Sequence record: MZ501053
Direction: 5' to 3' (one strand)
DNA: 49,298 nt
Origin: Escherichia phage BrunoManser
Shown: positions 3,527-25,942 of the stretch, piece by piece
How the letters are laid out: each line of letters starts with the position of its first letter
Position numbering within the stretch: the first letter of the stretch is position 1
The notes under the pieces: generated by a model
What the model saw: the letters and a program-made list of their open reading frames with translations, nothing else
Told to the model about the DNA's origin: nothing
Database searches by the model: none
Translations under genes and position numbers: made by a program

Positions 3527-4280
3527 CGGAATCGCTAAAACGTGGCGCTTTCCTGAATCCAGCGAGCGACAATTAAGTCGCTCTATGGAACAATTTACGG
3601 GCGCGATTGTCGCCCGTATGCAGGAGAGTTTAAAGCCCATGAAATGGGATGCGGACGAAAGTCAGATCGAGCAGGTAGAGCGAAGCTTGCTTGACTACGC
3701 CGAAGATTTGTTGCAATCAATGTTCGCGGCACTTCCGGCGCTGGCGTTCACGATCTATAAGTTCAACGCTAAACAGTGGATTAAGATCGCAAAGAGTGCG
3801 GGAGGTTCGAAAAATCAGGCTGTTATGTTGCTTGTCCTGATTGGTGCTAATATTGGCGAAAGCTGGTACGCGCCACAGTACGATCTATGGGAAGCGCAGA
3901 CGAAAACATCATTACGAAAATTCGCGGCGAACATGATTACCGACTTCACCGGGAAGCTACGCGACGCGGCGGCGAATGGCTACGAAGCCGAGCGGGTTTA
4001 TGAAGAAACCAATCAGCGTTACAAGGTTTACTCTTCGTGGGCGCGTAACAGGGCATCCGGGATCGTGACTACATGGAACAGCCGAATGATGCGTCAACGC
4101 CTGAAGGATGCGCAAGTTACCCACTACTTCTGGCGCGGAATGATGGATTTACGCGAACGTGAAAAGCACGTAAAATGGGAGGGTAAGCGCATTCCGGTAA
4201 ACAGCAATCACATATTCCCCGGCGAGGAATACGGTTGCCGTTGCTGGGTTGTTCCAGATTTCAATCAGATAGGAGATTAA
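3516..4280 (+). CDS. head morphogenesis protein (Mu F / SPP1 gp7-like)
   Basis: 254 aa, overlaps portal stop; C-terminal segment KWEGKRIPVNSNHIFPGEEYGCRCW resembles the conserved motif of phage minor head/morphogenesis proteins. Confidence 0.55.
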   Translation: MKINGIAKTWRFPESSERQLSRSMEQFTGAIVARMQESLKPMKWDADESQIEQVERSLLDYAEDLLQSMFAALPALAFTIYKFNAKQWIKIAKSAGGSKNQAVMLLVLIGANIGESWYAPQYDLWEAQTKTSLRKFAANMITDFTGKLRDAAANGYEAERVYEETNQRYKVYSSWARNRASGIVTTWNSRMMRQRLKDAQVTHYFWRGMMDLREREKHVKWEGKRIPVNSNHIFPGEEYGCRCWVVPDFNQIGD

Positions 4281-4283
4281 TTA

Positions 4284-5390
4284 ATGGCAAAGCAAAGATT
4301 CGATAGCGTCAAGATCAAAGCCCACTTTGACGAACACGGCTTTTTAGTCGATCGCCCGGTTGTCGCCCGTATCGGCGCACAGACTTATAAAACACCATTC
4401 GGCGATCGCGTGGAATTCCGCCCGGCTTCCGAAGTGTTCGATCCTGAATCGCTGGCAACTTACGCGGGCAAGCCCGTAACAGTCGGTCACGTAACCGTAA
4501 CGCCTGAGAACGCGGAAAAGGTTGTCGTAGGTTCATGCGCTGGCGACGGTATCCCGAACGGCGTCGGCGTCGAAGTGCCTATGTCGATTTACAGCCAACG
4601 CGCGATCGAGAAGGCGAGGCGCAAAATGGCGGCGGAATTGTCTGTCGGGTACACGTCCGAAGATATCGAAAAACCGGGCTGGGGTTCGAACGAAACGGGC
4701 GAATACATCTTCGAAGAGGATATGAAAGAAAACGAAGTGATCCCGAAAGGCTGGGTTAAGTTCGACGCCGTACAGACAAAAATCCGCGTAAATCATGTTG
4801 CTATGGTATTCAAAGGTCGCGCAGGTATCGCTAAATTAAACCTTGATAGCGAACAAGAATTCCCGTATGATTACGACGTTAATTCAAACAAAGAGGATCA
4901 CGTAATGAAGAAAATTAAAATCGACTCCGTAGAAGTGGAAGTGCCGGAAAGTGTAGCGGCGCACATCGAAAAGCTTAACGGTGAAGTGGCAACTATTCAG
5001 GGCAAGGCCGACGGTCTGGAAGCGGAACGCGATTTACTGAAAACTAAAGTAGACGGCATTCCGGCGCTGATTACTGAAGCAGTAGAAAAGCACAAGGCCG
5101 ACGCCGCCGAACTTACCGCGCTGATTGCTACAGCTTCCGAAGCTGGCGTGAAGTGCGACGGTCTGGACGCTAAAGCGATCAAAGTTGCTTTCCTGAAAGC
5201 TGTTACCGGGAAGGACGTTTCCGCGAAATCTGACGCTTACATCGATAACGCCTTCGACTTCGCGAAAGATTGTGATAATATGGCGTCACAGCGTCAAAGC
5301 ATCAAAGGCGACGCAGCAAACGAACCAGGCAAGAAAGAAGACGAAGACGAAGTGACTCCGAATTCCCGCCTGAATAAACTTAACAAGTAA
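4284..5390 (+). CDS. putative scaffolding / prohead-associated protein (DUF2213-like)
   Basis: 368 aa; N-terminus MAKQRFDSVKIKAHFDEHGFLVDRP..., coiled-coil-like acidic C-terminal half; located between morphogenesis and capsid genes. Confidence 0.4.
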   Translation: MAKQRFDSVKIKAHFDEHGFLVDRPVVARIGAQTYKTPFGDRVEFRPASEVFDPESLATYAGKPVTVGHVTVTPENAEKVVVGSCAGDGIPNGVGVEVPMSIYSQRAIEKARRKMAAELSVGYTSEDIEKPGWGSNETGEYIFEEDMKENEVIPKGWVKFDAVQTKIRVNHVAMVFKGRAGIAKLNLDSEQEFPYDYDVNSNKEDHVMKKIKIDSVEVEVPESVAAHIEKLNGEVATIQGKADGLEAERDLLKTKVDGIPALITEAVEKHKADAAELTALIATASEAGVKCDGLDAKAIKVAFLKAVTGKDVSAKSDAYIDNAFDFAKDCDNMASQRQSIKGDAANEPGKKEDEDEVTPNSRLNKLNK

Positions 5391-5403
5391 GGAGATTTAA
5401 ATT

Positions 5404-5880
5404 ATGCCAATTGCAGCAAGCTACCAGAAAGATATGGCGATCGCGCTTCCGGGTATGGTTGCGGACACTTCCCGATATAACATTGACGGCGCGTGTGTCC
5501 TGAATGGTGACGTTGATATCCTTGTCGGCGTAGCGGTTCAAATCGACAGCGTTCAAGCGGTTGACGGTCACAAAGTCATGAAACCTATGGCGTCCGGCGG
5601 CGTTCCTTACGGTATCGCTATTCGTTCCCACTTCCAGACTAAAGGCAAAAACGGCCAGATGTATTACGAAGCTGGCGGCGGTCTTAACGTTATGACTTCC
5701 GGTCGCGTTTGGGTTATCTCTAAAGACTCCACCGCCCCGGCGTTCGGTACTCCTGTCAAGTTCGACGTTGACGGACAGCAGAAAGCAGACGGCGCGATCG
5801 AAACTACGTGGACTTACGCGGGCGGATTCACCACTTATCAAGATCTGAAGCTGGTAGAAATTCAGTTGATGCAACTGTAA
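5404..5880 (+). CDS. head protein paralog A (putative decoration/structural protein)
   Basis: 158 aa; shares DTSxYNIDGACV, VPYGIA and GRVWV blocks with the next ORF; strong RBS; terminator downstream. Confidence 0.45.
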   Translation: MPIAASYQKDMAIALPGMVADTSRYNIDGACVLNGDVDILVGVAVQIDSVQAVDGHKVMKPMASGGVPYGIAIRSHFQTKGKNGQMYYEAGGGLNVMTSGRVWVISKDSTAPAFGTPVKFDVDGQQKADGAIETTWTYAGGFTTYQDLKLVEIQLMQL

Positions 5881-5895
5881 TTAACCGTTAATATG

Positions 5896-5927
5896 GGGGC
5901 TATCCTTTTGGATAGTCCCTTTTTTTA
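5896..5927 (+). terminator. intrinsic terminator (imperfect stem)
   Basis: GGGGGCTATCC-TTTTG-GATAGTCCC followed by T7. Confidence 0.5.
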
Positions 5928-5942
5928 TGGAGGTAATAAAAT

Positions 5943-6725
5943 ATGTCAGATTACGGAAACGTCATTCTAAAAGCTTTTCCCGGCTGTCTTTCCGACACGT
6001 CGGACTATAACATCGATGGCGCTTGTGTTGTTGGCGGGCAGGGTGAAGGCTCAGGTGGAGAACACGTCTTTTCAGGTTGTGCAGTGTGGGTTGAGTCAGT
6101 AGATCCGGGCGGGCATAAAATCGTTCGTCAAAACCTGATTTCTACTCAAAACGTGCCATACGGGATCGCAATGACGCATCACTATGCGCCGCACGAATCG
6201 GCGGACGGTTACGCGATGTATAACGTAGGCGATGTGATTAACGTCGTAACGCATGGTCGCGTGTGGGTTTACGGTAACAATACGGATATTACGCCAACCT
6301 TCGGACAGCGCGTTCGGATTCAGACAAACGGCACTGTCGGCACTTCTGGAGGAACGCTGGTTAACTGGCGATTCACTGGCGGAAAAGTAATCATCAAGCC
6401 TAACGTTGCGATCTTTGAGGTGCAATTAGTTCAGGGTATTAACGCGTTTTTGGTTGTGCATGGTGGCGACATGGTAATTAACCCGAATTCAATCGAAGCG
6501 GGGGCAACCGTTCAGGCAAGATTAATCGCTATCACTCCAGCCGCACCGGATCGAACTGGCAAATTCTCTTCGGAAGACGAAGGCGTCGCGACGGTAGATC
6601 AGGATACAGGCTTAATCACTGGCGTAGCGGCTGGAACGACTAACATCGTGTGGACAGCTAACGATTCCGGCAAGTACACGATCACGCGCCCGATTACCGT
6701 CACGGAAGCGCCGCCCGCACCATAA
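5943..6725 (+). CDS. head protein paralog B with C-terminal Ig-like (Big_2-like) domain
   Basis: 260 aa; N-terminal 130 aa paralogous to 5404-5880; C-terminal ~80 aa (GVATVDQDTGLITGVAAGTTNIVWTANDSGKYTITRPITV) resembles bacterial Ig-like domains common on capsid decoration proteins. Confidence 0.45.
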   Translation: MSDYGNVILKAFPGCLSDTSDYNIDGACVVGGQGEGSGGEHVFSGCAVWVESVDPGGHKIVRQNLISTQNVPYGIAMTHHYAPHESADGYAMYNVGDVINVVTHGRVWVYGNNTDITPTFGQRVRIQTNGTVGTSGGTLVNWRFTGGKVIIKPNVAIFEVQLVQGINAFLVVHGGDMVINPNSIEAGATVQARLIAITPAAPDRTGKFSSEDEGVATVDQDTGLITGVAAGTTNIVWTANDSGKYTITRPITVTEAPPAP

Positions 6726-6746
6726 CATAAAAACAGTTTGACGCTT

Positions 6747-6761
6747 TAACAAAAAGTGCTA
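6747..6761. promoter_or_regulatory. palindrome TAACA-N5-TGCTA (module family)
   Basis: TTTAACAAAAAGTGCTA in leader of major capsid gene, followed by hairpin. Confidence 0.5.
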
Positions 6762-6764
6762 TCA

Positions 6765-6791
6765 TAAAGCCGTTATCAATTAACGGCTTTT
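6765..6791 (+). terminator. hairpin with short U-tract upstream of major capsid gene
   Basis: AAAGCCGTTA-TCAAT-TAACGGCTTTT. Confidence 0.4.
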
Positions 6792-6814
6792 CACCAATAA
6801 GAGGAAATGAAAAC

Positions 6815-7792
6815 ATGGCTAAAAAATATGATGAATTCGAAGCTTCCGTCGTTGCTAATCACCTGCAAATGCGCGGCACTAAAGCGGACGCCGACACGTT
6901 AGGTATTTGGACGGCGCAAGAACTTAATAAGCTGAAGTCGCAGTCTTACGAAAAGGATTACCCGGCTGGCTCCGCACTTCGCGTTTTCCCGGTTACGTCT
7001 GACCTTTCCCCGGTTGATAAAACCTTCGAATATCAGACTTTTGATAAAGTCGGTATCGCGCAAATTATCGCCGACTACACTGATGATTTGCCGCTGGTAG
7101 ATGCAATGGCATCAAGCGAATTCGGTAAAGTCTTCCGCCTGGGTAATGCGTATCTGATTTCTATTGACGAAATCAAAGCAGGTCAAGCGACTGGTAAGTC
7201 TCTGTCGAATCGCAAAGCGAACGCGGCACAGCTTGCGCATGATCAGCTTGTCAACCGTCTGGTCTTCAAAGGTTCCGCACCGCACAAAATCGTAAGCGTG
7301 TTCAATCATCCGAACATCACGAAGATTACGTCTAAGGGCTGGACTTCTACCACTGGCGGCGTTACTACTAAACTGCCAGCGAACGCAGAAGAAGAATTGA
7401 CCACAGCAATCGAAACTATCGAAACGCTGACTATGGGCGCACACCGCGCGACTCACATTCTGATTCCGCCGTCTATGCGTAAAGTTCTGACCGTTCGCAT
7501 GACCGACACTACCGAAAGCTATCTAGAATACTTCCAGAAGCAAAACAGTAATATTACCATCGAAGCTATCGCGGAGTTGGAAGATATCGACGGCTCAGGC
7601 ACTAAAGGCGCATTAGTTTACGAATACGATCCGATGAATATGTCTATCGAGATCCCGGAAGCGTTTAACATGCTGCCAGCGCAGCCGAAAGACCTGCATT
7701 TCAAAGTGCCTTGCACTTCTAAATGTACTGGCCTGACAATCTACCGTCCGTTGACGATTGTCCTGATTACCGGGCTTGCAGTTACCGAATAA
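6815..7792 (+). CDS. major capsid protein
   Basis: 325 aa, strong RBS (AAGAGGAAATGA), position after scaffold/decoration genes, followed by a strong hairpin terminator. Confidence 0.6.
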   Translation: MAKKYDEFEASVVANHLQMRGTKADADTLGIWTAQELNKLKSQSYEKDYPAGSALRVFPVTSDLSPVDKTFEYQTFDKVGIAQIIADYTDDLPLVDAMASSEFGKVFRLGNAYLISIDEIKAGQATGKSLSNRKANAAQLAHDQLVNRLVFKGSAPHKIVSVFNHPNITKITSKGWTSTTGGVTTKLPANAEEELTTAIETIETLTMGAHRATHILIPPSMRKVLTVRMTDTTESYLEYFQKQNSNITIEAIAELEDIDGSGTKGALVYEYDPMNMSIEIPEAFNMLPAQPKDLHFKVPCTSKCTGLTIYRPLTIVLITGLAVTE

Positions 7793-7805
7793 TTGCCTTA
7801 ATATA

Positions 7806-7832
7806 GGGACTCATTAATTGAGTCCCTTTTTA
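7806..7832 (+). terminator. intrinsic terminator after major capsid gene
   Basis: GGGACTCA-TTAAT-TGAGTCCC followed by TTTTT. Confidence 0.65.
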
Positions 7833-7851
7833 TTATCAGGAGTAAACAAAA

Positions 7852-8154
7852 ATGGCTAAAGCACCTAAAGCAAAATCTGAAGTAACCGAATCCGGCAAAG
7901 TGGGAATCATCAATACTGGCGTAGCGCTGATTTTCATTGACGGCGAAAAGCTTATGCCGGGCGATGAAATGGAAGTGTCCGCCGAACTTCTGAAGACTTC
8001 AGGCATTGAATATCTGTTCGGGCAAGGCGCGTTAGAAATCAAAGACGACCGCGACGCAACCGACGAAATTCGCGAACGAATGGCGGCACGACGCAAGCAA
8101 GATCCTACCGCTGGCAAGTCACAAAAAGAACTTGAAGACGGCGGCGAATTCTAA
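7852..8154 (+). CDS. hypothetical structural protein
   Basis: 100-aa ORF with RBS (CAGGAG), between two terminator hairpins in the head module. Confidence 0.45.
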
Positions 8155-8162
8155 ACCGAGTC

Positions 8163-8186
8163 CGGGCGCTATATGCGCCCTTTTTC
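8163..8186 (+). terminator. intrinsic terminator
   Basis: GGGCGC-TATAT-GCGCCC followed by TTTTT. Confidence 0.6.
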
Positions 8187-8204
8187 ATATCTGGAGGTAA
8201 CGAA

Positions 8205-8618
8205 ATGTCAGAAGATGAATTGCAAGAAGTCTACGCGATTCTTGTCGCGCTGGCTCCGCCAATGCAGAATATTAACCCGACACAAATCAAAGTTTGGATC
8301 GACCTTGCAAGCGATTACGTTTGCAAATCGAAATTCAAGTCGCGCTATCATAAAGCTGTCGCACTGTATGCGCTTCATTTGATGGTATTGGATGGGGCAA
8401 TGAAGCAGGGAACCGAAAGCGTAGAATCAATGACGCGCCGTGTAACGTCATTTTCCCTGAGCGGTGAATTTTCGCAAACGTTCGGCGATGTATCGAAGAC
8501 GACTTCGAATGATGTTCTTGAACAAACGCCGTGGGGCAAAATGTACCGGGCTTTACTCCGCAAGAGTGGCGGCGGTATGGGTTTAATGACAGGACTTCGT
8601 AGGGGGTGCGGAAGATGA
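8205..8618 (+). CDS. putative head-tail connector/adaptor protein
   Basis: 137 aa, RBS GGAGG, first of four overlapping small neck-region ORFs; positional call. Confidence 0.4.
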
Positions 8619-8992
8619 ACTATGCAGCGTTGCAAAAGTTAGCGAAGGACGGGATCGGCTTTTTTGCTGATCCTATGCTGGGCGGTGGCGAATGTACGTT
8701 GATTCGTGGCGGCTGCGTAACGATGGTTAACGGCGTCGAAGTTGTGCAGCCGGAAGAGGTGTTAACCATTCAGGGAGTTATCCGGGATATTCAGGCGCGT
8801 GACGTTAACGGCGACACTATACGGGCAGACGATAAGCGCGGAATCTTCACCTTTGAAGAATATATCAATAAAGGAAACTGGATCGTGGTTGAAGGCGTGA
8901 AGTATGAAGTTGTAGACCCGCGACCGATCAAACCGTCCGGGACTGTCGTCGCATACCGCCCGATTTTGCGAAGGGTGGCTCTGTATGGCTAA
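8606..8992 (+). CDS. putative head closure / head-tail joining protein
   Basis: 128 aa, overlaps neighbours; positional call. Confidence 0.4.
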
Positions 8993-9428
8993 CTATCAGG
9001 TGCGGCAATTTCACGCGTCAATCGACGCGTGGATTAAAGCGGCTAGGAACGGATTAGAAGACACATTGCGAATCTTCATTGAAGAGGTTCACAAGGCGTT
9101 AGTAATGGGTTCTCCGGTCGATACAGGGCGATTTAGGGCTAACTGGCAGATAACTTTTAACGCTCCGCCTATGTACGCTCTAAACCAATATGATAAATCA
9201 GGCGGACAAACGATCGCATACGGGAAGCGTGTAGCCAGCGTGTTCACTCTTCGACGTGGCGCGGCTATAACGTCAATCTATTTTTCTAACATGCTGATTT
9301 ACGCTAATGCGCTGGAGTACGGGCATTCGAAACAAGCCCCGGCTGGCGTCGTTGGCGTGGTGGCAATTCGCCTTCGCTCTTTCATGGCGGACGCGATCAG
9401 ACAATCGAGGGCTAAAAATGCACTATGA
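8985..9428 (+). CDS. putative neck/tail component
   Basis: 147 aa, overlapping start/stop with neighbours; positional call. Confidence 0.4.
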   Translation: MANYQVRQFHASIDAWIKAARNGLEDTLRIFIEEVHKALVMGSPVDTGRFRANWQITFNAPPMYALNQYDKSGGQTIAYGKRVASVFTLRRGAAITSIYFSNMLIYANALEYGHSKQAPAGVVGVVAIRLRSFMADAIRQSRAKNAL

Positions 9429-10609: not shown

Positions 10610-10924
10610 ATGGCTAAATTCAAAATTACTTTGGGCGCACTGCCTGACTTCGCACTACCCGTAAAATTCATCATGCCGAACGGCGACGAAGCGAAAATCA
10701 CTTTCAAAGTGAAGCATCGCCCGTCTAACGAAGTGCAGGAGCTTTACGATCGACAAGATATCAAAGACCACGATTTCATTATGGAATTGGCTTCCGGCTG
10801 GGATCTGGAAGAAGAGTTTAATCAAGAAAACGCCGAAATGCTTGTCCGCTACTATCCGGGCGCGGCGCTGGCTCTTACGTCAACCTACCTTCGAGCGCTG
10901 GCAGGGCAACGCGTAAAAAACTAA
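10610..10924 (+). CDS. tail assembly chaperone (G-like)
   Basis: 104 aa, immediately upstream of tape measure; ends with slippery A_AAA_AAC before stop. Confidence 0.6.
   Translation: MAKFKITLGALPDFALPVKFIMPNGDEAKITFKVKHRPSNEVQELYDRQDIKDHDFIMELASGWDLEEEFNQENAEMLVRYYPGAALALTSTYLRALAGQRVKN
10915..10921 (+). other. candidate -1 programmed ribosomal frameshift site (A_AAA_AAC)
   Basis: Heptamer X_XXY_YYZ in zero frame two codons before the stop of ORF 10610-10924; -1 frame continues into ORF 10942-11241. Confidence 0.5.
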
Positions 10925-10941
10925 AGCGGGCGGTTTATCTG

Positions 10942-11241
10942 ATGTACCAGAAACCGCCCACAGATGAAGAGTTAAGATCTGTCGGCCTGTCCCGTTCTGA
11001 CTACGAAGGAGAGGAACCGGAAATACTTTATTTCCCTGAAGACATGATCCAATCGTATGACGTGTTTTGTGCGATGGGTACGCAGTGGAGAAGCGCTGGC
11101 GCTGGGGCTTATGGTCTTGATTATAATGTTTTGCCTATGTTGTTCAAAATCTATAAAATAGACGATGAAGAGCAGGTGTTAAACGATATTCGTGTTATGG
11201 AACAGAAAGCATTAGAAATGATGCACCATAACAGCAAATAA
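10942..11241 (+). CDS. tail assembly chaperone extension (GT-like, probably made by -1 frameshift from 10610-10924)
   Basis: 99-aa ORF in the -1 frame relative to upstream ORF; that frame is open back through the slippery heptamer at 10915-10921. Confidence 0.5.
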   Translation: MYQKPPTDEELRSVGLSRSDYEGEEPEILYFPEDMIQSYDVFCAMGTQWRSAGAGAYGLDYNVLPMLFKIYKIDDEEQVLNDIRVMEQKALEMMHHNSK

Positions 11242-11265
11242 GCGCCTTCGGGCGCTTTTCTTTTA
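11241..11265 (+). terminator. intrinsic terminator before tape measure gene
   Basis: GCGCC-TTCG-GGCGC followed by TTTTCTTTT. Confidence 0.55.
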
Positions 11266-11282
11266 TCTGGAGGTAATCACAT

Positions 11283-13988
11283 ATGGCGGAACAATACGCG
11301 GGATTGTCGCTAGGTGTTGACGTATCGCAAGTCGATCGGGCTGTAAAGTCTCTTCGTGAATTTGCGAAGGCGAACGACGGCGCGGCGGACTCGACCCATG
11401 AATTTCTAAATCAAACGGAAGTTGCGAAACAGAAGGCAAAGGATCACGCGCGTGAACTGTCGAAACAGGCGAGGGAATATTCCAACGTTGTAGCGGCTAT
11501 CGATCCCACAGTCAAGAGCATGAACCGCTTACGCGAAACGGCGAAGCAGTTAGACGCACTTTGGAAAAAAGGCGTCGTACCGGACGACGAATTCTTCCGG
11601 CTTGGCGAAGTTCTGGAATCGCAAGAGGTTGCATTGCGCAAGAATCAGCAAGCGTTAACGGCTGAAGGTCGAGCGGCGGCGGAAGCATCACGCCAGAAGG
11701 AGGCGGCAACGAAGGCCGGGCAAAACTTCATCAAGAGCTTAGAACAGCAAGCCTTATTCGCTGGCAAGACGGCGCAAGAAGTTTTAGAACTGAAGGCCGC
11801 GCAATTAGGCGTAAGCGAACAGGCCGCGCCATTTATCGCGCAGTTGAATAATCAGGCGAAGGGTTTAAAACTGGCTGGCGTTTCTGCCGGGCAATATGCG
11901 CAAGCAATGCGAATGCTTCCGGCGCAGATTACGGACGTTGTAACGTCGCTTGCTTCCGGTATGCCTGTTTGGTTGGTAGCAATCCAGCAGGGCGGACAGA
12001 TTAAAGACAGCTTCGGCGGGCTGGGTAATACGTTCAAAGTTCTGTTGTCTTTCCTGAATCCGCTTAACGTCGGATTGGGCGTTACGGTTGGGGCGCTGGG
12101 AGCACTGATTTATAAGGTTGTCAGTACCCGCAACGAGATCAAGGAAACTCAATCCGCAGTCAATACCCAGCTTGGTATTACTGGCGATTACGCTGATCGG
12201 TTGTCCTTGAACATTATGGGGATCGCGAAAGCCGCCGACCAATCAGCAGACGAAGTAATCAAAGCTTTCATTTCGACGAAAGACGGCGCGGAAGAGTCGT
12301 TACAGAAAATGCTAGACGTCGGGATCAGCTACGACGAAGCGCGACAGCGTGTCGAGCAGTACAAGAAATCGGGCGATTTCACGGCGCTAAACGTTGACAT
12401 TGAACAGCACCGATTAAAGGTTCTGGAAATCAAAGACGCGTGGAGCGATGCGGCGGAAGAGGTGAGGAACTATTACACCGGGGCAAATGAAGGGAAACAG
12501 TCTGTCGCGCTGGGTGGTGCGGTTGATCCGATCGTCAAAGTTCTGGAACAGGCCAAAACGCTTAATCAGCAAGTCAACACGGCGCGAATCGAAGGTAACA
12601 AGCATGTAGCGAAAACCATCGATTTGATTAACAAAGAGTATTTAGCGGCGGATCGTGTCGCAGGGGCTGAGAAGGCATTAGCCGACGCGAGAAAGAACGC
12701 CAACGCGATCGCGGCGTCCGGCAATAAAGAAGCAATCGCCAACGCTCAAAAGTTAATCAAGATTCGTGAAGACGAAGTGAAACAGGCGAAGGAGGCGGAG
12801 AAGAAGAAAGGCACTAAGGGCGGCAAGAAAGGTTCTGGCGGTATCACGCGAGCACCTACCGAGCAACTCGACAAAGAGCTTTACGTGCTTCAGGCGCAGT
12901 TAGTGACGCTGCAAAAACACGCCAGCATTAACGATCGCATTTCGCAACAGCGTAAAGCGCTATGGGCTGTCGAAGGACAGATTCAGGTTCTGGAGGAAGC
13001 GCAATCCACGCGCAAATTAACCAATGCGGAACAGGCGTTATTACTGGAACAGAAACAGGTACTAGCCCGCGCACAGCAGAAAGCCGAATTAGGCGATCAG
13101 ATTGCGCAGCAGGAAAAGCTAAACCAGTTGAATCAAGATTCCGTTAAATTCGTATTGCAAATGGATCAAGCAACGAAGACGCTAAACGATACGCGAAGCA
13201 TGGGCGCACTTGCGGCACAACGTGAAGCGGAACGCCAGAAGATGCAAGCGGATTGGTTAGCGAAAGGCGGAAGTCTTGAGGAAGACACGTTCAAGCGTAT
13301 GCAGGAAGCGCAAGAAAAATACTACGCAGCCGAAGACGAAAAGCGCGGAGATTGGCTAGCGGGGGCGCAATCTGCATTTGCCACCTACGGCGAAGAAGCA
13401 ACAAACATGTATGATAATGTAGGCAACATTGCTTCGAATGCACTGTCGGGAATGTCCGATATGATGGCGGAATTCCTCATGACCGGGGAGGCGAACTTCG
13501 CAGATTTCGCTAAGAGCATCATTAGCCAGATTATCCAGATGATTACTAAGATGGTAATCTTCAATTCGATTTCTGGTATGATGGGCGGCTCTACGTGGAG
13601 TTTTGCGGGCGGGTTTGCTAACGGCGGTTATACCGGGAACGGCGGCAAGTACGAACCGAAAGGCGTAGTGCACGGCGGCGAATTCGTATTCACGAAGGAG
13701 GCGACAAGCAGGATCGGGGTTGGCAACCTAAACCGACTCATGCGGGGTTATGCGAACGGCGGTTCGGTTGGCAATGCTTCGCGCGGAACAGGGTTAACGC
13801 TTTCGAGCGGTGGCGCTGGCGCTGGGAGCTATATCGACGTTAGCGGGATGAAAGTCGATGTGAATAACGGCAACGACCCGAAAGGGCTTGAGCAGGGCAT
13901 TCGTATGATCTGCAACGAAATGATTAACGAATCGTTTTCACAAGGTGGCAAGGCTTACACCTACATTATGGAAAAAACAGGAGGCTAA
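11283..13988 (+). CDS. tail tape measure protein
   Basis: 901 aa, largely coiled-coil (A/E/K/Q-rich), Gly-rich C-terminal region, position after chaperones. Confidence 0.85.
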   Translation: MAEQYAGLSLGVDVSQVDRAVKSLREFAKANDGAADSTHEFLNQTEVAKQKAKDHARELSKQAREYSNVVAAIDPTVKSMNRLRETAKQLDALWKKGVVPDDEFFRLGEVLESQEVALRKNQQALTAEGRAAAEASRQKEAATKAGQNFIKSLEQQALFAGKTAQEVLELKAAQLGVSEQAAPFIAQLNNQAKGLKLAGVSAGQYAQAMRMLPAQITDVVTSLASGMPVWLVAIQQGGQIKDSFGGLGNTFKVLLSFLNPLNVGLGVTVGALGALIYKVVSTRNEIKETQSAVNTQLGITGDYADRLSLNIMGIAKAADQSADEVIKAFISTKDGAEESLQKMLDVGISYDEARQRVEQYKKSGDFTALNVDIEQHRLKVLEIKDAWSDAAEEVRNYYTGANEGKQSVALGGAVDPIVKVLEQAKTLNQQVNTARIEGNKHVAKTIDLINKEYLAADRVAGAEKALADARKNANAIAASGNKEAIANAQKLIKIREDEVKQAKEAEKKKGTKGGKKGSGGITRAPTEQLDKELYVLQAQLVTLQKHASINDRISQQRKALWAVEGQIQVLEEAQSTRKLTNAEQALLLEQKQVLARAQQKAELGDQIAQQEKLNQLNQDSVKFVLQMDQATKTLNDTRSMGALAAQREAERQKMQADWLAKGGSLEEDTFKRMQEAQEKYYAAEDEKRGDWLAGAQSAFATYGEEATNMYDNVGNIASNALSGMSDMMAEFLMTGEANFADFAKSIISQIIQMITKMVIFNSISGMMGGSTWSFAGGFANGGYTGNGGKYEPKGVVHGGEFVFTKEATSRIGVGNLNRLMRGYANGGSVGNASRGTGLTLSSGGAGAGSYIDVSGMKVDVNNGNDPKGLEQGIRMICNEMINESFSQGGKAYTYIMEKTGG

Positions 13989-16574: not shown

Positions 16575-19500
16575 ATGATTAAAAAAGTGATAACCGGATC
16601 GAAAGGTGGTGGCGGAAAGCCTCATACACCTGTCGAAATGGAAGATAACTTGATTTCAATCAACAAAATACGCGTGTTGCTGGCAGTGTCAGACGGCGAA
16701 GTCGATCCAGACTTTGACATGAAAATGTTGTTGCTTAACGACGTTCCAGTTATGAACGACGACGGCACATACAACTACGAAGGCATTACGGCGGAATTCC
16801 GTCCCGGTACGCAAACGCAAGATTACATACAGGGATTCACCGACAGCGCAAGCGAAGTAACGATGAATCGCGTTATCGATCGCGATACCCCGTACAGCAT
16901 CAACGTTACGAACAAATCGCTTTCGGCTATCCGTATCAAAATGTATATGCCGCGTGGCGTGAAGGTGGAAAGCAACGGCGACAAGAACGGCGTTCGCGTC
17001 GAATACAAAGTCGAATTAGCTGTCGATGGTGCGGCGTTTACCGAATACTTCACCGACGTAATCGACGGTAAAACAATGTCGGGCTATGACCGCAGCCGCC
17101 GAATCAACCTTCCGGCGTTCAACAGTCAAGTAATCGTGAGAGTGTCGCGCGTTACTCCTGATTCCGACGATTCTAACTTGATCGACGAAATGCAGTTGAA
17201 AAGCTATGCGGAAGTAATCGACGCTAAATTCCGTTACCCGCTGACTGGTCTGTTATTCGTGGAATTCGATTCGAAGATGTTCCCGACCCAGATCCCGAAT
17301 ATTTCGCTTCGTAAAAAGTGGAAGGTGATTAACGTCCCGTCGAACTATAACCCGATTACCCGCGACTATAACGGAAGCTGGGACGGCACGTTCAAAAAGG
17401 CGTGGAGTAATAACCCGGCATGGGTTCTTTACGATATCATCACGAACCAACGTTACGGGTTAGATCAGCGTGAGTTAGGGATTAATGTCGATAAGTGGGC
17501 GTTATACGAAGCCGGGCAATATTGCGATCAGATGGTTCCAGACGGAAAAGGCGGAACCGAACCGCGTTACCTTTGTGATGTGGTTATTCAGTCGCAGATT
17601 GAAGCGTTTAAACTGGTTCGCGATATCTGTTCAATCTTCCGTGGTATGTCGTTTTGGAATGGCGAAAGTTTATCTGTCGTGATCGATAAGCCGCGCGACC
17701 CGTCTTACATTTTCACCAACGAAAACGTAGTCGGCGGTAACTTCTCTTACTCGTTCGCGAGCGAAAAGAGCATGTACACGACTTGCAACGTGCAGTTTGA
17801 TGATCATGAAAACTTATATCAACAGGACGTTGAACCTGTATTCGATACTGACGCGGCGCGACGCTTCGGCAATAACCCGACAAGCATTACAGCGATCGGA
17901 TGTACGCGACGCAGCGAGGCTAACAGGCGCGGACGCTGGATTCTGCGAACGAACCTTCGCAGCACGACGGTTAACTTTGCTACCGGGCTGGAAGGTATGA
18001 TCCCGCAAATCGGCGACGTCGTGGCGATTGCAGATAATTTCTGGTCAAGCAATCTTACGTTAAACCTTTCCGGGCGAGTCATGGAAGTATCAGGATTGCA
18101 GATTTTTACGGCGTTTCGTGTTGACGCTCGCGCAGGTGATTTTATTGTCGTAAATAAGCCGGATGGGAAGCCCGTCAAGCGCACAATTTCTTCGGTGTCA
18201 CCAGACGGCAAGACAATAGAAATAAACGTAGGATTCGGCTTTGACGTCGCACCAAGCACTATCTTTGCTATCGACCGAACCGACGTTGCTTTGCAACAGT
18301 ACGTTGTAACCGATATCAAGAAAGGCGACGGCGACGAAGAGTTCGTATTCAGTATCACGGCGGTTGAGTATGACCCGAACAAATACGACGCAATCGACTA
18401 CGGCGTAAACGTTGACGACAGGCCGACAAGTATCGTAGATCCTGACAAGTTGCCAGCGCCGCAAAACGTAGCTGTCGAATCGTTTTCGCGTATCGTGCAG
18501 GGCTTGAGCGTCGAAACGATGGTCATTAGCTGGGAGAAGGTCGATTATGCGGCATTCTATGAGGTTCAATGGAGAAAGAATAACGGTAACTGGATTAACG
18601 TTCCGCGCACCCAAACGAACGAAACATTCGTCGAAGGGATTTACGCGGGCGAATACTCCGTCCGAGTTCGCGCTATTTCATCTTCGGAAAACGCTTCCGT
18701 ATGGTCTGAGGTGGTAACGGTCGGATTAACTGGCAAGGTAGGCGAACCGGGCGCACCGATTAACTTCACTGCGTCCGACGACGTTGTTTTCGGTATCCGG
18801 TTAAAATGGGGTATGCCTGAAGACTCCGGCGACACGGCTTACATTGAAGTGCAGCAATCGCCAAACAACAGCGTAGAAAATGCATCGTTGCTAACGTTAG
18901 TCCCGTATCCGCAACATGAGTATTTCCATACTCCGCTTGAGGCCGGGAAGATGATTTTCTATAGAATTCGCGCCATCGACAAAATCGGCAACGTGTCTCC
19001 TTGGACTGACTTAATACCCGGAATGGCGTCTACCGACGTGGAAAGTATCATCGGTGAAATTAAGGTTGATATCGAAAATTCAGAGGGATATCAATGGCTG
19101 AAGGAAAACGCAACGGACGCAATAGCGAGAATCCAGAACACGGCAGAATCGGCGATAGAGAATGCGTTAGCCAATGATAAGGACATAAGAATCCAGCGAG
19201 TGAAGAACGGCAAATTCACGGCGCAGATTAAAGAGTCGTTACAGCTTATCGCCAACGAAACCGAAGCGCGTGTGACGCAAGTTTCACAGATGGAAGCGGA
19301 CTTCGACGGCAAGATTAACGCTCAAAATACTGAGCTTCGACAGGTTATCGCAACGGAAACGGAAGCGCTATCCGAAGAGATCGAAGAACTGAAAGCCTCA
19401 ATCGGTGACGATATTCAGGCGCAGTTAACGCAGGTTCAACAGGCGATCGCCAACGAAACGGAAGCGAGAACCACGGCGGACACGGCGTTAAGCGCAAGAA

Positions 19501-19997
19501 TCGGAAACAACGAAGCGGCATTGAATCAGAAGCTTGATTCGTGGGCTAACGTTGATTCTGTTGGTGCGATGTATGGCGTTAAGCTTGGATTGACATATAA
19601 CGGACAGCAGTATAGCGCGGGTATGGCTATGTCTCTGATTGCTTCCGGTAACGATGTTAAGTCACAACTTCTGTTTGAGGCCGACAGATTCGCGATCTAC
19701 AATGGTGCTAATAATCATATTAGATACCCATTTATCGTTGAGGGCGGGCAGGTAATACTAAGTAGCGCGGTGATTAAGGATGGATTCATCACTAATGCCA
19801 TGATTGGTGGATACATTCAATCAAATAACTACGTGTGGAACCAATCTGGTTGGCACTTAGGGAAGGACGGAACGTTCCTTAACTTCGGTTCAACTCCGGG
19901 CGAAGGTTCGATGAAACAGGATAACCAGACGATCAGCGTTAGAGATCAGAACGGTGTTCTTCGCGTCCAGATTGGTAGAATTACTGGCGTATGGTAA
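16575..19997 (+). CDS. central tail fibre / host specificity protein (lambda J-like)
   Basis: 1140 aa, last large gene of the tail tip module; C-terminal ~150 codons look AT-richer than the rest by eye. Confidence 0.8.
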   Translation: MIKKVITGSKGGGGKPHTPVEMEDNLISINKIRVLLAVSDGEVDPDFDMKMLLLNDVPVMNDDGTYNYEGITAEFRPGTQTQDYIQGFTDSASEVTMNRVIDRDTPYSINVTNKSLSAIRIKMYMPRGVKVESNGDKNGVRVEYKVELAVDGAAFTEYFTDVIDGKTMSGYDRSRRINLPAFNSQVIVRVSRVTPDSDDSNLIDEMQLKSYAEVIDAKFRYPLTGLLFVEFDSKMFPTQIPNISLRKKWKVINVPSNYNPITRDYNGSWDGTFKKAWSNNPAWVLYDIITNQRYGLDQRELGINVDKWALYEAGQYCDQMVPDGKGGTEPRYLCDVVIQSQIEAFKLVRDICSIFRGMSFWNGESLSVVIDKPRDPSYIFTNENVVGGNFSYSFASEKSMYTTCNVQFDDHENLYQQDVEPVFDTDAARRFGNNPTSITAIGCTRRSEANRRGRWILRTNLRSTTVNFATGLEGMIPQIGDVVAIADNFWSSNLTLNLSGRVMEVSGLQIFTAFRVDARAGDFIVVNKPDGKPVKRTISSVSPDGKTIEINVGFGFDVAPSTIFAIDRTDVALQQYVVTDIKKGDGDEEFVFSITAVEYDPNKYDAIDYGVNVDDRPTSIVDPDKLPAPQNVAVESFSRIVQGLSVETMVISWEKVDYAAFYEVQWRKNNGNWINVPRTQTNETFVEGIYAGEYSVRVRAISSSENASVWSEVVTVGLTGKVGEPGAPINFTASDDVVFGIRLKWGMPEDSGDTAYIEVQQSPNNSVENASLLTLVPYPQHEYFHTPLEAGKMIFYRIRAIDKIGNVSPWTDLIPGMASTDVESIIGEIKVDIENSEGYQWLKENATDAIARIQNTAESAIENALANDKDIRIQRVKNGKFTAQIKESLQLIANETEARVTQVSQMEADFDGKINAQNTELRQVIATETEALSEEIEELKASIGDDIQAQLTQVQQAIANETEARTTADTALSARIGNNEAALNQKLDSWANVDSVGAMYGVKLGLTYNGQQYSAGMAMSLIASGNDVKSQLLFEADRFAIYNGANNHIRYPFIVEGGQVILSSAVIKDGFITNAMIGGYIQSNNYVWNQSGWHLGKDGTFLNFGSTPGEGSMKQDNQTISVRDQNGVLRVQIGRITGVW

Positions 19998-20047
19998 AAT
20001 CTTAGGGCGGCAATCGTCGCCCTATATCTTTTAAGGAGGTTCGAATT

Positions 20048-20353
20048 ATGGCTTCTTACGGCATTGGAACGTGGGACGGTAACGGAAACTATAATAACTA
20101 CGGCATTAAGCCAGTTTCGGTTATTGGAATCATAAATCTTAGTAGCGGTCAGAATTCCGGCTCGTGGAATTTCGATGTTCCGCAGGGGATGAAAGTAGGG
20201 TTTGCGGTAACGCTTGATACTGGAGGCCAAACGATAGGCCGACGAATAGTTGCAAGCGGTAATAACATTTCAATCTATCCGGCGTCTGATATCGGGATCG
20301 GTAACTACCCGGCATCTAATTGTGAATTAGTTGTGTTTTTGGAGAATGCTTAA
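20048..20353 (+). CDS. hypothetical protein (Gly/Asn/Ser-rich), possible host-range accessory
   Basis: 101 aa, RBS AAGGAGG; AT-richer codon usage than core structural genes (by eye). Confidence 0.4.
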   Translation: MASYGIGTWDGNGNYNNYGIKPVSVIGIINLSSGQNSGSWNFDVPQGMKVGFAVTLDTGGQTIGRRIVASGNNISIYPASDIGIGNYPASNCELVVFLENA

Positions 20354-20355
20354 TT

Positions 20356-21027
20356 ATGGCTAGATATGGCGCTTACATTGACAGTAATTCTGGGCATCCG
20401 TTTATAACTCCAGTATCAACTCCGTTCGTACTCTATACTAAGGCTTCTGTATCATCCGTTGATATCGGTGCGGATTATAAGGGCGCTAACGGAACCATAG
20501 ATATTAATCCGTCATATCCCGCTATGGTTTTCCTGAGATCTGATAACAGGGCTACTCTTAGCGCGACAAGATCGGGCGGTAAAATATTATTCGGTGGAAG
20601 TATTCAGGGGCGGAATAATCCACATTTCACCGTTACGGCGTATGTGTTCGCGAGATTCCCGCAACCGACCCCGCGCTATGGGATGGCTATATGGGATGCG
20701 TCCGGGACTTGCATACTGACTAACGAAAGCAGGGTGTTAACAGATCTAGTTACTGTTGGTACTGTTGGTAATGGCGGTGGGATAAATATCGATCAGACCC
20801 TTCCGGGCAATTATGCAGTTTCTCCAATGACTATGGGCGCGACGCTTATACAAATATTTGTTCAGGGACAGCCGCAGATAATTAACATATCCGCGTCTAC
20901 TGGAGCATATAACAGCGGAGGCGGGACAAGGATTAATGCCGTATCAAGTCAGGCGGCAAGCGGTAACGTTGTAGGATATCTTAATACAGGGGTGACAATA
21001 ACAGCTATAAACGTTGATGGACTATAA
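20356..21027 (+). CDS. hypothetical protein (Gly/Ser/Thr-rich beta-type), possible host-range accessory
   Basis: 223 aa, translationally coupled to previous ORF; bidirectional terminator immediately downstream. Confidence 0.4.
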   Translation: MARYGAYIDSNSGHPFITPVSTPFVLYTKASVSSVDIGADYKGANGTIDINPSYPAMVFLRSDNRATLSATRSGGKILFGGSIQGRNNPHFTVTAYVFARFPQPTPRYGMAIWDASGTCILTNESRVLTDLVTVGTVGNGGGINIDQTLPGNYAVSPMTMGATLIQIFVQGQPQIINISASTGAYNSGGGTRINAVSSQAASGNVVGYLNTGVTITAINVDGL

Positions 21028-21032
21028 GAAAA

Positions 21033-21060
21033 AGCCCGGAATTAACCGGGCTTTATATTT
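21033..21060. terminator. bidirectional terminator between tail accessory genes (+) and cor (-)
   Basis: AAAGCCCGG-AATTAA-CCGGGCTTT flanked by A-run and T-run. Confidence 0.6.
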
Positions 21061-21061
21061 T

Positions 21062-21289
21062 TCATCGTTTGCAGTCGTGAGTGGTGAATTGCCTTTCGTT
21101 TACATAATGAAATGAGAACGGGTATCCGGCGCGTAACATTAACTCCCCTCCATTGAGCCTCGTTCCGAACACATACACTTCGTATTTGTTATATCCAGAT
21201 TCGTATATAGCGGTACACGTTCTTTTCGGCATATCAGCACAACCAATCAGAGCTAACGCAATCGCCGCGACCATAAGCTTCTTCTTCAT
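21062..21289 (-). CDS. cor: Cor-like superinfection exclusion lipoprotein
   Basis: Start set to internal ATG with RBS GGAGGG; N-terminus MKKKLMVAAIALALIGC has signal peptide plus lipobox (LIGC); small size and location just downstream of the J-like gene match Cor of T1/phi80-type phages. Confidence 0.55.
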   Translation of the reverse strand: MKKKLMVAAIALALIGCADMPKRTCTAIYESGYNKYEVYVFGTRLNGGELMLRAGYPFSFHYVNERQFTTHDCKR

Positions 21290-21444
21290 TCTAAAACCCT
21301 CCATTCGTTTGTTTATCGGCATTATACACGTTTGCGATCGTGAGTGTTGGCAAAAAGTGCGATCCATAAAAATGACGCTGTAATCCTATTACATGTAATT
21401 CGTGTAACTTTTGTCTATCATTTTCATGATTACAGAATCCGCAC

Positions 21445-21535
21445 AAAATTTGAGCAACTATGGAGCGCACTGATATACGCTAACTCCTTATAATATATAG
21501 ATAATAATAATAATCTTAAATTGGTTTTTTATATG
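21445..21535 (+). repeat. AT-rich direct repeat, copy A
   Basis: AAAATTTGAGCAA...CGCTAACT...TATAATATATAGATAATAATAATAAT...TTAAATTGGTTTTTTATAT; about 75% identical by eye to copy B. Confidence 0.55.
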
Positions 21536-21779
21536 TGTAATTATCATGTAATCAATGTAAGCGGTGTAATCGTGTTTTTTGTGATGCGTTCAAATTGATA
21601 GTGATTCTCTATGGAATGATGCGTTATCGATGGGGTGTCTTGATATTTATCTATGGGGCGATTACAAGCTCACATCTTATACATGCAACTTTACGGGATT
21701 CATGGCATTGAATTACATAGAGATTTTGTGTAATCGTATTTTTTCTAAGAAATGATTACGAACAATTACAGCGTAACTG

Positions 21780-21807
21780 TTGACTAAATGTCCCTACTGG
21801 CTATAAT
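21780..21807 (+). promoter_or_regulatory. strong sigma70 promoter (TTGACT-N16-TATAAT) upstream of recombination genes
   Basis: Near-consensus -35 and -10 about 30 bp upstream of ATG at 21838, followed by leader CATCATCAACGAAGGAG. Confidence 0.6.
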
Positions 21808-21837
21808 GACCACATCATCAACGAAGGAGATAAACGA

Positions 21838-24137: not shown

Positions 24138-25922
24138 TTACTTCAGCAATAGCGATTCAAGCTTCGCTAATCTTTCTTCGAGTTCATCGACTCGACCTTC
24201 TGCTTTGTCTGCTCGTTCCTTCTGTTCGTTGAATGCGTTAACCAACAATGCAGTAACGCCAGCATAGTTCACGCCTTTCATACCTTCCTTTTTAGCATCA
24301 GGCGTCTTTCCATTATCTTCAAGCTGGACAACAGCTTCTGGCAAAACAAATTCAAGATCCTGAGCAATTAATCCAGCCTCAACGCTGTATAACGATCTGT
24401 CAGTTTCATGCAATTCATTACGTTTATAGTACGTATATCCGACAAGCCTTTCCACGCGCTCACTTGCTGACTCGATTTTTTTGAGATTTGTTTTCATCCT
24501 CAAGTCGGATGTACTTGTCCAGTTTGCCGCCATAGCCACTCCGTCATCAGTAAACCTGAATAAAGCACTCCTAACATAAAGGTGTGTCTCACACATGCCG
24601 GAGTCATATCTAGTACAATCTACGCCAGTTACCCAATCAGCGCCCAACTGCACAGCCTTGAAAATGTTGACGGCGGAGTCAGACCCGGGAAGCTCCACAA
24701 TAACGCCAGCCGCCCTATCACGCCACGCAGCAAAATAACCCCCCTCAACCTCCCCAGCAACAAATGCCCCGTTTCCAGTTGTTCTGCGTACATCAACCCT
24801 CAATGCTTCTTTTTCTTCCGAAGATAGGCTTCTGATTCGTCCGCTAGCGTTAATTTCGTTAACGTTATTCAAGTCTCCTCTTTCATTAATTTGTAGATAG
24901 TTTGTTCCACCACCCTCTCTGGCTGTCTGAATTGTTGTTTTTGCAACCCCATTCTGCATTTCATGATAAATCCTTGAATACGAAACTTTAGATCCATCTG
25001 GATTATTATTTCGTAAAGCAATAATCCCTGAAGTTGTGCCATTCTTAGCCTCAAACTCAATACCACCAAATACTGGAACTTGATTTGCAGATAAACCCAA
25101 ATTGCTACGAGCGGCGTTAACGTCGGTTAGCCCTGATAGGTTCCCATCCTTGCGTAACAGCGCATCCGGGTTAACACTATTTGCGAACTGTTCCGCCTGA
25201 TTCCTGAATGCTTGCGACTGATCGCGGGCAGTTTCAGATCCAGACTGTGCCGTTTGCGCCGCGTTTCTGGCGTTTTCTGCTTGCGTAACCATGCCGCCAA
25301 TATCCGACTTCGCATTGTTGACGTCGATAACAGCCTGATCGCGAGTCTTGTTTACAGTATTAACCGCGTTCGTTTGTGCTGTACCAACTTCGGACAGCGC
25401 GTTATCTTTAATCTGTTGCGTCTGGTTCTTGAATCCTTCCGCCTCATTGCGATAGAAAAGCGATTCGTTCGCATATGTCCCGGCCTGAGTCTTCGACGCT
25501 TCCGCTTGTCCTTTGAACGTTTCCGCGTCATTCCTGAATGTCTGCGTTTCGTTGCGAAGGGTAATTATCTGTTGCAGGTCGAAATCTTTAAAGAATTCGA
25601 TCGCCTCTTCGATAACCGTTTCTTTGCTCTGATAGTATCGAAGCGTTTCCGCAACGTCTTGCGCCATGCCGTCAACGGTTAACGAGTCATTCAACAGGAT
25701 CACATATTTGGATTGCGCCACCGCTTCGCCGTCCGTAGTAATGGCGGTCATTTCCGTATCGCTATCGATCGTGTTGATTACCGCCAGCTTCAATGGTGTA
25801 GTAAGGAAAACTATAGTTGCGCCTTTGCGGATCAGGGATAACGGTTCGCGCCATTGAGTACCGACGCCCGTTACTTGTCCTTCCGCCGTCATTGACGCTT
25901 CGCCTTGTCTGTATAAAGCCAT
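24138..25922 (-). CDS. tail fibre protein with C-terminal intramolecular chaperone (peptidase S74-like) domain
   Basis: Start set to internal ATG after RBS GGAGG (MALYRQG...); Q/N/A-rich fibre repeats; C-terminal ~120 aa ([23 protein letters not shown]...) resembles endosialidase-chaperone autoprocessing domain ending in a coiled coil. Confidence 0.65.
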
Positions 25923-25942
25923 TTGTAAATCCTCCAAGTAAA

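Follow-up and report, generated by a model that had tools for sequence, protein, structure and literature searches.

Which genes does Escherichia phage BrunoManser use to recognize its host, and how much of the region behind its central tail fiber gene is exchanged between phages as a unit? The stretch analyzed here, referred to as the window, is the whole 49,298-nucleotide genome of BrunoManser (record MZ501053; GC content 0.481), and the locus in question consists of the tail gene J, two small genes that we call orfA (101 aa) and orfB (223 aa), and the lipoprotein gene cor on the opposite strand, located in this order upstream of the recombination genes. The BASEL S5 Table lists Bas12/BrunoManser (MZ501053) with 49298 bp and a GC content of 0.481, places it in Drexlerviridae; Tunavirinae; Sertoctavirus with SRT8 as the closest relative, and gives FhuA as its experimentally determined terminal receptor (PMC8594841). 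The nearest records in our phage collection were SRT8 and Citrobacter phage IME-JL8, with 91–96% nucleotide identity. We assign the locus with high confidence to FhuA recognition plus exclusion, and the best explanation of the data, which we regard as very probable, is FhuA-specific host recognition and superinfection exclusion in a T1-like phage.

The locus is the FhuA allele of the "bona fide receptor-binding protein (RBP) locus" downstream of gpJ. It occupies the position of that locus and carries cor together with orfA (phrog_557) and orfB (phrog_425); its FhuA dependence comes from the published Bas12 receptor and not from computation (PMC8594841); and the allele is replaced in relatives with another receptor, namely IME347 and the YncD-dependent Bas11. 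An RBP locus downstream of gpJ is known in Drexlerviridae, Dhillonvirus, Queuovirinae and FhuA-using lambdoid phages, and its alleles agree with receptor specificity without exception (PMC8594841). A large 2026 screen is in accordance with this match and found the J tip to be associated with specificity (10.64898/2026.04.02.716166), while the Cor cassette is consistently found in FhuA-targeting BASEL phages (PMC13164509). The locus sets the outer-membrane protein that the phage uses, and consequently the host bacteria that are killed and the route of resistance. The locus type has already been described, with Bas12 among the phages on which the concept was built, and it already serves to predict receptors from genome sequence. 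Given that the receptor of Bas12 is published and that the locus type is in use for such predictions, the known picture is confirmed here and not extended.

The J–orfA–orfB–cor layout recurs in T1, EC147, phi80, HK225, the Dhillonvirus bob and the FhuA-dependent JLBYU60. The T1 genes ST33-ST32-ST31-ST30, like N15 gp21–24, phi80 gp21–24 and their HK022 counterparts, have the same order and FhuA as receptor. T1 belongs to the same subfamily (Tunavirinae), its cor also converges from the opposite strand, and the proteins are of similar size in BrunoManser and T1 (orfA 101 and 101, orfB 223 and 229, Cor 75 and 75 aa), with identities of 51% for orfA, 46% for orfB, 59% for Cor and 75% for the J core. 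A rho-independent terminator is annotated in T1 at the same place after J, and a terminator is also annotated at the orfB/cor junction (after ST31). Compared with the published FhuA allele of the RBP locus there is no difference in kind; our analysis adds a finer breakpoint within J, at aa ~1081. A prior reading made from the sequence alone, hereafter the sequence-only reading, had proposed an exchangeable host-recognition module with a Cor protein aimed at FhuA, and this is upheld by the published receptor, the shared layout and the different cassette in the nearest genus; the open reading frames (ORFs) lie where it placed them (Table 1).

Table 1. Coordinates of the features of the BrunoManser J–cor locus (positions in the window)
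Feature	Coordinates	Strand	Basis
J, gpJ-like central tail fiber/tail tip protein, 1140 aa	16575..19997	+	ORF; Pfam; phrog_31 'central tail fiber J'; equals T1 ST33/gp33
J last ~60 codons, cassette-specific tip	19815..19997	+	Segment identities across phages
Terminator-like hairpin in the J/orfA gap, with a T-rich tail behind it	20003..20024	+	Pattern scan and sequence
orfA (bas12_0023), 101 aa, small all-beta protein	20048..20353	+	Homologue of T1 ST32 and N15 gp22
orfB, 223 aa	20356..21027	+	Homologue of T1 ST31 and N15 gp23
Bidirectional terminator hairpin, AAAGCCCGG-AATTAA-CCGGGCTTT	21031..21054	both	Pattern scan on both strands
cor, 75 aa, exclusion lipoprotein	21289..21062	-	NCBIfam NF047972; phrog_1119; lipobox

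The exchange of the module is visible in IME347, which represents the nearest other genus. Three unrelated minus-strand genes (phrog_25729, phrog_4524 and phrog_7961) replace orfA, orfB and cor in this phage, in the same layout as in Bas11 (JohannLBurckhardt), which depends on YncD (PMC8594841). The pair IME347 and BrunoManser is a clean natural cassette swap, and conservation of the two small ORFs at this position in all relatives, which would have spoken against a mobile module, was not observed, since IME347 and Bas11 differ. The inverted YncD-type unit comprises three genes, for proteins of ~100 aa, ~216 aa without a signal peptide and ~110 aa with one, and lies at 10828–12209 of the IME347 stretch and 4201–5567 of the Bas11 stretch.

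Identities were calculated segment by segment between BrunoManser and ten other phages. J contains the Pfam domains FNIII-A_GpJ, Phage-tail_3, fn3 and Phage_Tail_Tip (aa 983–1115). Its core (aa 1–840) tracks taxonomy, with 88% identity to IME347, 75% to T1, 73% to EC147, 72% to Bas11, 63% to the Webervirus Jurek, 45% to phi80, 42% to HK225 and 37% to Dhillonviruses, whereas the last 60 residues group by cassette type across families, being 62–77% identical to those of FhuA-type phages as opposed to 45% for IME347 and 43% for Bas11. In the FhuA-type phages of other families, J cores with 37–45% identity are thus combined with tips of 62–77%. The segment immediately before the tip, aa 981–1080, still tracks taxonomy (IME347 81%, bob 43%), and the similarity switches near aa 1081 (nt ~19815). 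It is this phylogenetic incongruence that shows horizontal exchange, which base composition does not. The mosaic J C-terminus of the sequence-only reading is therefore real by incongruent similarity, but its start at 19540, with ~150 exchanged J codons, is not, as the switch at ~19815 leaves ~60 codons only and composition offers no proof. No other part of J moves together with the cassette, and the tip probably constitutes a docking platform for the downstream proteins. In comparison with SRT8, the tip shows 12 synonymous and no non-synonymous codon differences and orfB 39 synonymous and 5 non-synonymous ones, and both are under strong purifying selection.

Several further observations concern J. 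The region most diverged from SRT8 is aa ~810–1100 (19000–19900), which forms the distal fiber ahead of the conserved tip, with 86–90% nucleotide identity vs 94–99% around it, and aa 841–980 form the least conserved J segment relative to T1 and IME347 (63–64%). The J homologue of IME-JL8 is mislabelled as a "putative ATP-dependent helicase" (5574–8999 of the compared stretch).

The cassette itself is not a single unit, because the nearest relatives of orfB are not those of cor. The nearest orfB homologues occur in the Dhillonvirus group of bob, B2 and SECphi4 (73–75%, vs 46% for T1), and those of Cor in T1-type phages (59–63%, vs 44% for bob). Furthermore, cor is read in the direction opposite to J in T1-like phages, BrunoManser included, and in Dhillonvirus phages, whereas the lambdoids phi80 and HK225 have both genes on one strand, and this difference in strand also marks cor as a separate unit. 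The Klebsiella Webervirus Jurek keeps J-orfA-orfB but has no cor at the locus, where the lateral fiber gene follows directly. Across the phage collection, 346 records contain orfB and 225 contain cor, with 111 vs 2 among Klebsiella phages. In Jurek (4229–5202 of the compared stretch), the FhuA-type J tip is 62%, orfA 47% and orfB 32% identical to BrunoManser. The exact exchangeable unit, i.e., J tip, orfA and orfB with cor separate, is useful for engineering receptor switches in T1-like phages.

Several features bear on which protein of this unit contacts the receptor. AAGGAGG precedes the orfA ATG by 8 nt, and orfB starts 2 nt past the orfA stop codon, on the J strand within the late tail operon. 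Both proteins are rich in Gly, Ser, Thr and Asn and all-beta. A signal peptide, a lipobox and a hydrophobic segment were looked for in both and none was found; the Kyte-Doolittle maximum over 19 residues is 0.70 for orfA and 1.06 for orfB, whereas transmembrane helices usually reach ~1.6. Searches of Pfam, NCBIfam and PDB sequences with orfA and orfB gave no match. The AlphaFold 2 (AF2) model of orfB is confident (predicted local distance difference test, pLDDT, 90.4; predicted template modelling score, pTM, 0.85), with low confidence for the first ~20 residues, and its fold matches that of the Oekolampad RBP, a solved structure of the LptD type. At the sequence level no such relationship was detected, as the orfB family profile aligned to the Oekolampad RBP by hhalign with a probability of 0.4% and phmmer against the PDB gave no match; similarly, the profile-profile comparison of orfB with the 216-aa protein of IME347 was not significant. 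Foldseek of orfB against BFVD returned 17 phage proteins at E ≤ 1e-3, all of them uncharacterised and lacking a known function. In published AF2-multimer models, the JLBYU60 homologue of orfB was the favored partner of both FhuA and the J tip (PMC12309495), and published AlphaFold 3 (AF3) models also favor the orfB homologue in this role.

Based on the modelled fold and these published models, orfB is probably the direct binder of FhuA and the most likely RBP, so that the contact with the receptor would be made by orfB and not by J or orfA, with orfA as a presumed adaptor or co-factor at the J tip. The suggestion that the two genes encode additional receptor-binding or exclusion factors can accordingly be kept for receptor binding, although orfB would be the primary RBP and not an additional one, and is improbable for exclusion, for which an export signal is missing. 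Some points weigh against this assignment. The published support for orfA and orfB being in the virion or binding FhuA consists of correlation and structure prediction; in the cryo-EM study of T1 the J C-terminus is not resolved and no extra tip protein is reported; Lewis et al. (2023) take J itself as the RBP; and the role of orfA is divided among adaptor, co-receptor binder and chaperone. The J Virol 2023 paper on FhuA has nothing on the two small genes.

It is conceivable, but in our view unlikely, that J makes the contact with FhuA through its own C-terminal tip, like lambda J with LamB, and that orfA and orfB are chaperones or accessory proteins without receptor contact. Besides the treatment of J by Lewis et al., this would be in line with the co-variation of the tip with cassette type, with the prediction of the receptor from tip k-mers in the 2026 screen (10.64898/2026.04.02.716166), and with the mapping of TolC, LamB and NupG specificity to J C-terminal domains in related phages (PMC8594841; 10.64898/2026.04.02.716166). 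However, a tip of ~60 aa that is still 43–45% identical between FhuA- and YncD-type phages suits a docking platform better; in the LptD allele the downstream protein, whose fold orfB shares, is the receptor binder by cryo-EM; and the J-FhuA interface is poor in the published multimer models (PMC12309495).

Even less probable is that orfA and orfB are envelope proteins acting together with Cor in superinfection exclusion (Sie). In all FhuA-type E. coli phages compared, the two genes adjoin cor, their PHROG names point to the envelope, and a Sie-related role has been assumed from predicted localisation and the association with cor (PMC13164509). Yet the proteins named in databases as outer-membrane or membrane-associated have no basic or hydrophobic N-terminus, in addition to lacking the export and membrane features searched for above, and low membrane affinity was computed for their homologues (PMC12309495). 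Moreover, the genes follow the late tail genes on the J strand, they occur without cor in Klebsiella Webervirus, and orfB outnumbers cor across the collection and folds like a solved RBP. The assignment of orfB as the RBP is consistent with all of these features.

The base composition of the region does not point to a recent import. Total GC of 19540–21289 is 0.454, vs 0.481 for the whole window and 0.491 for J aa 1–988, which corresponds to the 11.6th percentile among 1750-nt windows. The difference is clearest in the GC content at third codon positions (GC3), with 0.571 for J aa 1–988, 0.480 for J aa 989–1140, 0.441 for orfA and 0.397 for orfB. The value for J aa 989–1140 is below that of every 152-codon window in J 1–988 (minimum 0.520), and the J C-terminus, orfA and orfB fall into the 3rd–6th percentile of equal-size windows across all genes, with orfB having the lowest GC3 of the genome's genes >100 codons; cor, at 0.50, is not unusual. 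Composition is thus not uniform across J and the downstream genes, and the greater AT-richness of the J end and the two small genes, judged by eye in the sequence-only reading, is real, clearest at GC3 and weak in total GC. Its use there as a sign of horizontal exchange is not sustained. We compared nine phages of four lineages (Sertoctavirus, Tunavirus (T1), Hanrivervirus (EC147), Webervirus, two Dhillonvirus and two lambdoids), and in 9 of 9 the GC3 of orfA and orfB is below that of the J core of their own genome. Since the drop recurs in all of them, low GC3 is a trait of the gene family and not a mark of recent import. In addition, each copy lies close to its genome in composition; the orfB genes of bob and BrunoManser, whose products are 74% identical, have GC contents of 0.54 and 0.46, so that these genes have adopted the composition of the genomes that carry them. 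Total GC was rejected as proof of foreign origin, given its modest percentile and a family-wide shift. A recently imported segment whose AT-richness marks the donor, as a literal reading of the fall in GC3 from 0.57 to 0.40–0.48 over the region and of the extreme value of orfB would have it, is therefore highly implausible, because GC3 falls below that of the J core in all nine phages of four lineages, the closest orfB relatives outside the genus are the GC-rich Dhillonviruses, and SRT8 and IME-JL8 hold the cassette at 91–93% nucleotide identity with mostly synonymous change.

The second component of the locus, exclusion, is represented by Cor. The protein begins with the signal peptide MKKKLMVAAIALALIGC and contains the lipobox LIGC with Cys17; cleavage after MKKKLMVAAIALALIG and before C leaves Ala18 at position +2, forming a canonical lipoprotein signal. 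Cys25 and Cys73 align with Cys residues in the Cor proteins of T1, EC147, bob and HK225, i.e., in all homologues aligned. Cor therefore combines a type II signal peptide, a lipobox, a residue other than Asp at +2 (outer-membrane sorting) and the Cys pair. It scored 42.3 bits against the NCBIfam equivalog NF047972, "phage exclusion lipoprotein Cor" (cut-off 31), over aa 1–74 of 75, and matched phrog_1119 with an E value of 8.8e-25. The Cor-like lipoprotein with a clean lipobox that had been recognized on the opposite strand is confirmed by these results. A GGAGG at 21298–21302 (minus strand) lies 8 nt ahead of the ATG. Longer versions of the ORF (101 aa from 21367; 86 aa in the SRT8 annotation) were rejected in favor of the 75-aa start at 21289, which is preferred because of the well-spaced GGAGG and the canonical lipoprotein signal, as in T1 Cor. 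In SRT8, the RefSeq cor start at the upstream ATG (8064–8324 of the compared stretch; 86 aa) buries the lipoprotein signal, and in IME-JL8 cor is unannotated.

The Cor proteins of phi80, N15, mEp167 and T1 are known to block adsorption of FhuA-dependent phages (literature cited in PMC13164509), and by analogy BrunoManser Cor is predicted to be an outer-membrane lipoprotein that excludes such phages. It may bind FhuA from the periplasm, in analogy to T5 Llp and in line with a published AF3 model in which Cor and Llp are alike in fold (template modelling score 0.69; PMC13164509). Between the cor genes of BrunoManser and SRT8 there are 4 non-synonymous and 1 synonymous codon differences; two changes fall within the signal peptide and two make up a GY-to-RS replacement in the mature part, and these small numbers suggest relaxed or diversifying selection.

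Taken together, the following sequence of events can be proposed. The trimeric J fiber would end in the ~60-residue cassette-specific tip, on which orfB would hang non-covalently, either directly or via the small beta-sandwich protein orfA. Binding of orfB to the extracellular face of FhuA would then lead to irreversible adsorption and DNA ejection, a commitment step that we liken to that of pb5 in T5 and of the Oekolampad RBP on LptD. The hairpin between J and orfA probably acts as an attenuator; by reducing transcription of the genes behind it, it would keep orfA and orfB at the small copy number that a virion requires, while the bidirectional terminator would end both the orfB transcript and the converging cor transcript. 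From the opposite-strand transcript, Cor would be exported, lipidated and bound to the periplasmic side of FhuA, thereby blocking later FhuA-dependent phages and keeping progeny from adsorbing to debris.

This arrangement resembles two known systems. The RBP of Oekolampad (Bas18) and Rtp44 with Rtp45, which represent the LptD allele and are known from cryo-EM (PDB 9RPT, 9RPS), have the same position after J, combine an RBP without a signal peptide with a small exclusion lipoprotein, and, at least for the Oekolampad RBP, share with orfB a poorly ordered, tail-proximal N-terminus. In contrast to BrunoManser, a single 321-aa RBP takes the place of the 101- and 223-aa proteins, the genes lie on the strand opposite to J, and the receptor is LptD. 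The sequences of orfB and the Oekolampad RBP are 9% identical without profile-level similarity, but the N-terminal motif G-h-x-h-(W/I)-D-x-x-G is common to both. While a 2026 preprint calls the four RBP families unrelated, orfB was found here to share the fold of the LptD-type RBP. T5, with pb5 and Llp, follows the same logic, i.e., a monomeric RBP on a trimeric central fiber that binds FhuA, and a periplasmic exclusion lipoprotein, but differs in genomic location. The pb5 protein has 640 aa.

The non-exported proteins of the FhuA, LptD and YncD alleles share an N-terminal motif, M-x(1-3)-G-h-x-h-(W/I/L)-(D/N)-x-x-G, which was defined after seeing the sequences. It reads MASYGIGTWDGNG in orfA, MARYGAYIDSNSG in orfB, MGAGILIDYNDG in the Oekolampad RBP and MAAGLQCWDASG in IME347 gp55, and among the 79 genes of the BrunoManser genome it occurs at the N-terminus of orfA and orfB only. 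The motif appears again inside orfB at residue ~108 (YGMAIWDASG). By hhalign, the internal duplication of orfB and its homology to orfA are weak (probability 10–42%, E ~3e-4), and orfA matches IME347 gp55 at the N-terminus only (probability 59%). The recurrence of the motif faintly suggests that orfB arose by tandem duplication of a beta-sandwich like that of orfA. Shared ancestry of the alleles is hinted at by the fold match, the motif, and the YncD architecture of a small, a medium and an exported protein; it is a tentative possibility that the FhuA, LptD and YncD alleles are diverged versions of one ancestral module, with the motif as a J-docking peptide.

Two neighboring regions deserve mention. 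The lateral tail fiber gene at 24138–25937 (minus strand; 599 aa; GC3 0.45) shares 50–68% nucleotide identity with SRT8 and IME-JL8, as opposed to 89–98% in the flanking sequence, and its length is 1833 nt in SRT8 and 2052 nt in IME-JL8. Among the phages most closely related to BrunoManser, it is this gene that is the truly hypervariable host-range locus. Between cor and the recE-like exonuclease gene lies a gap of 548 bp (21290–21837) that has a GC content of 0.34 and contains 10 of the 22 TGTAAT(C/T) motifs of the genome; the corresponding counts are 10 in SRT8, 3 in T1 and 0 in EC147, IME347 and Bas11. The motifs could serve as operators or regulatory sites. Upstream of the exonuclease gene, at 21780–21807, there is a near-consensus sigma-70 promoter, TTGACT-16-TATAAT.

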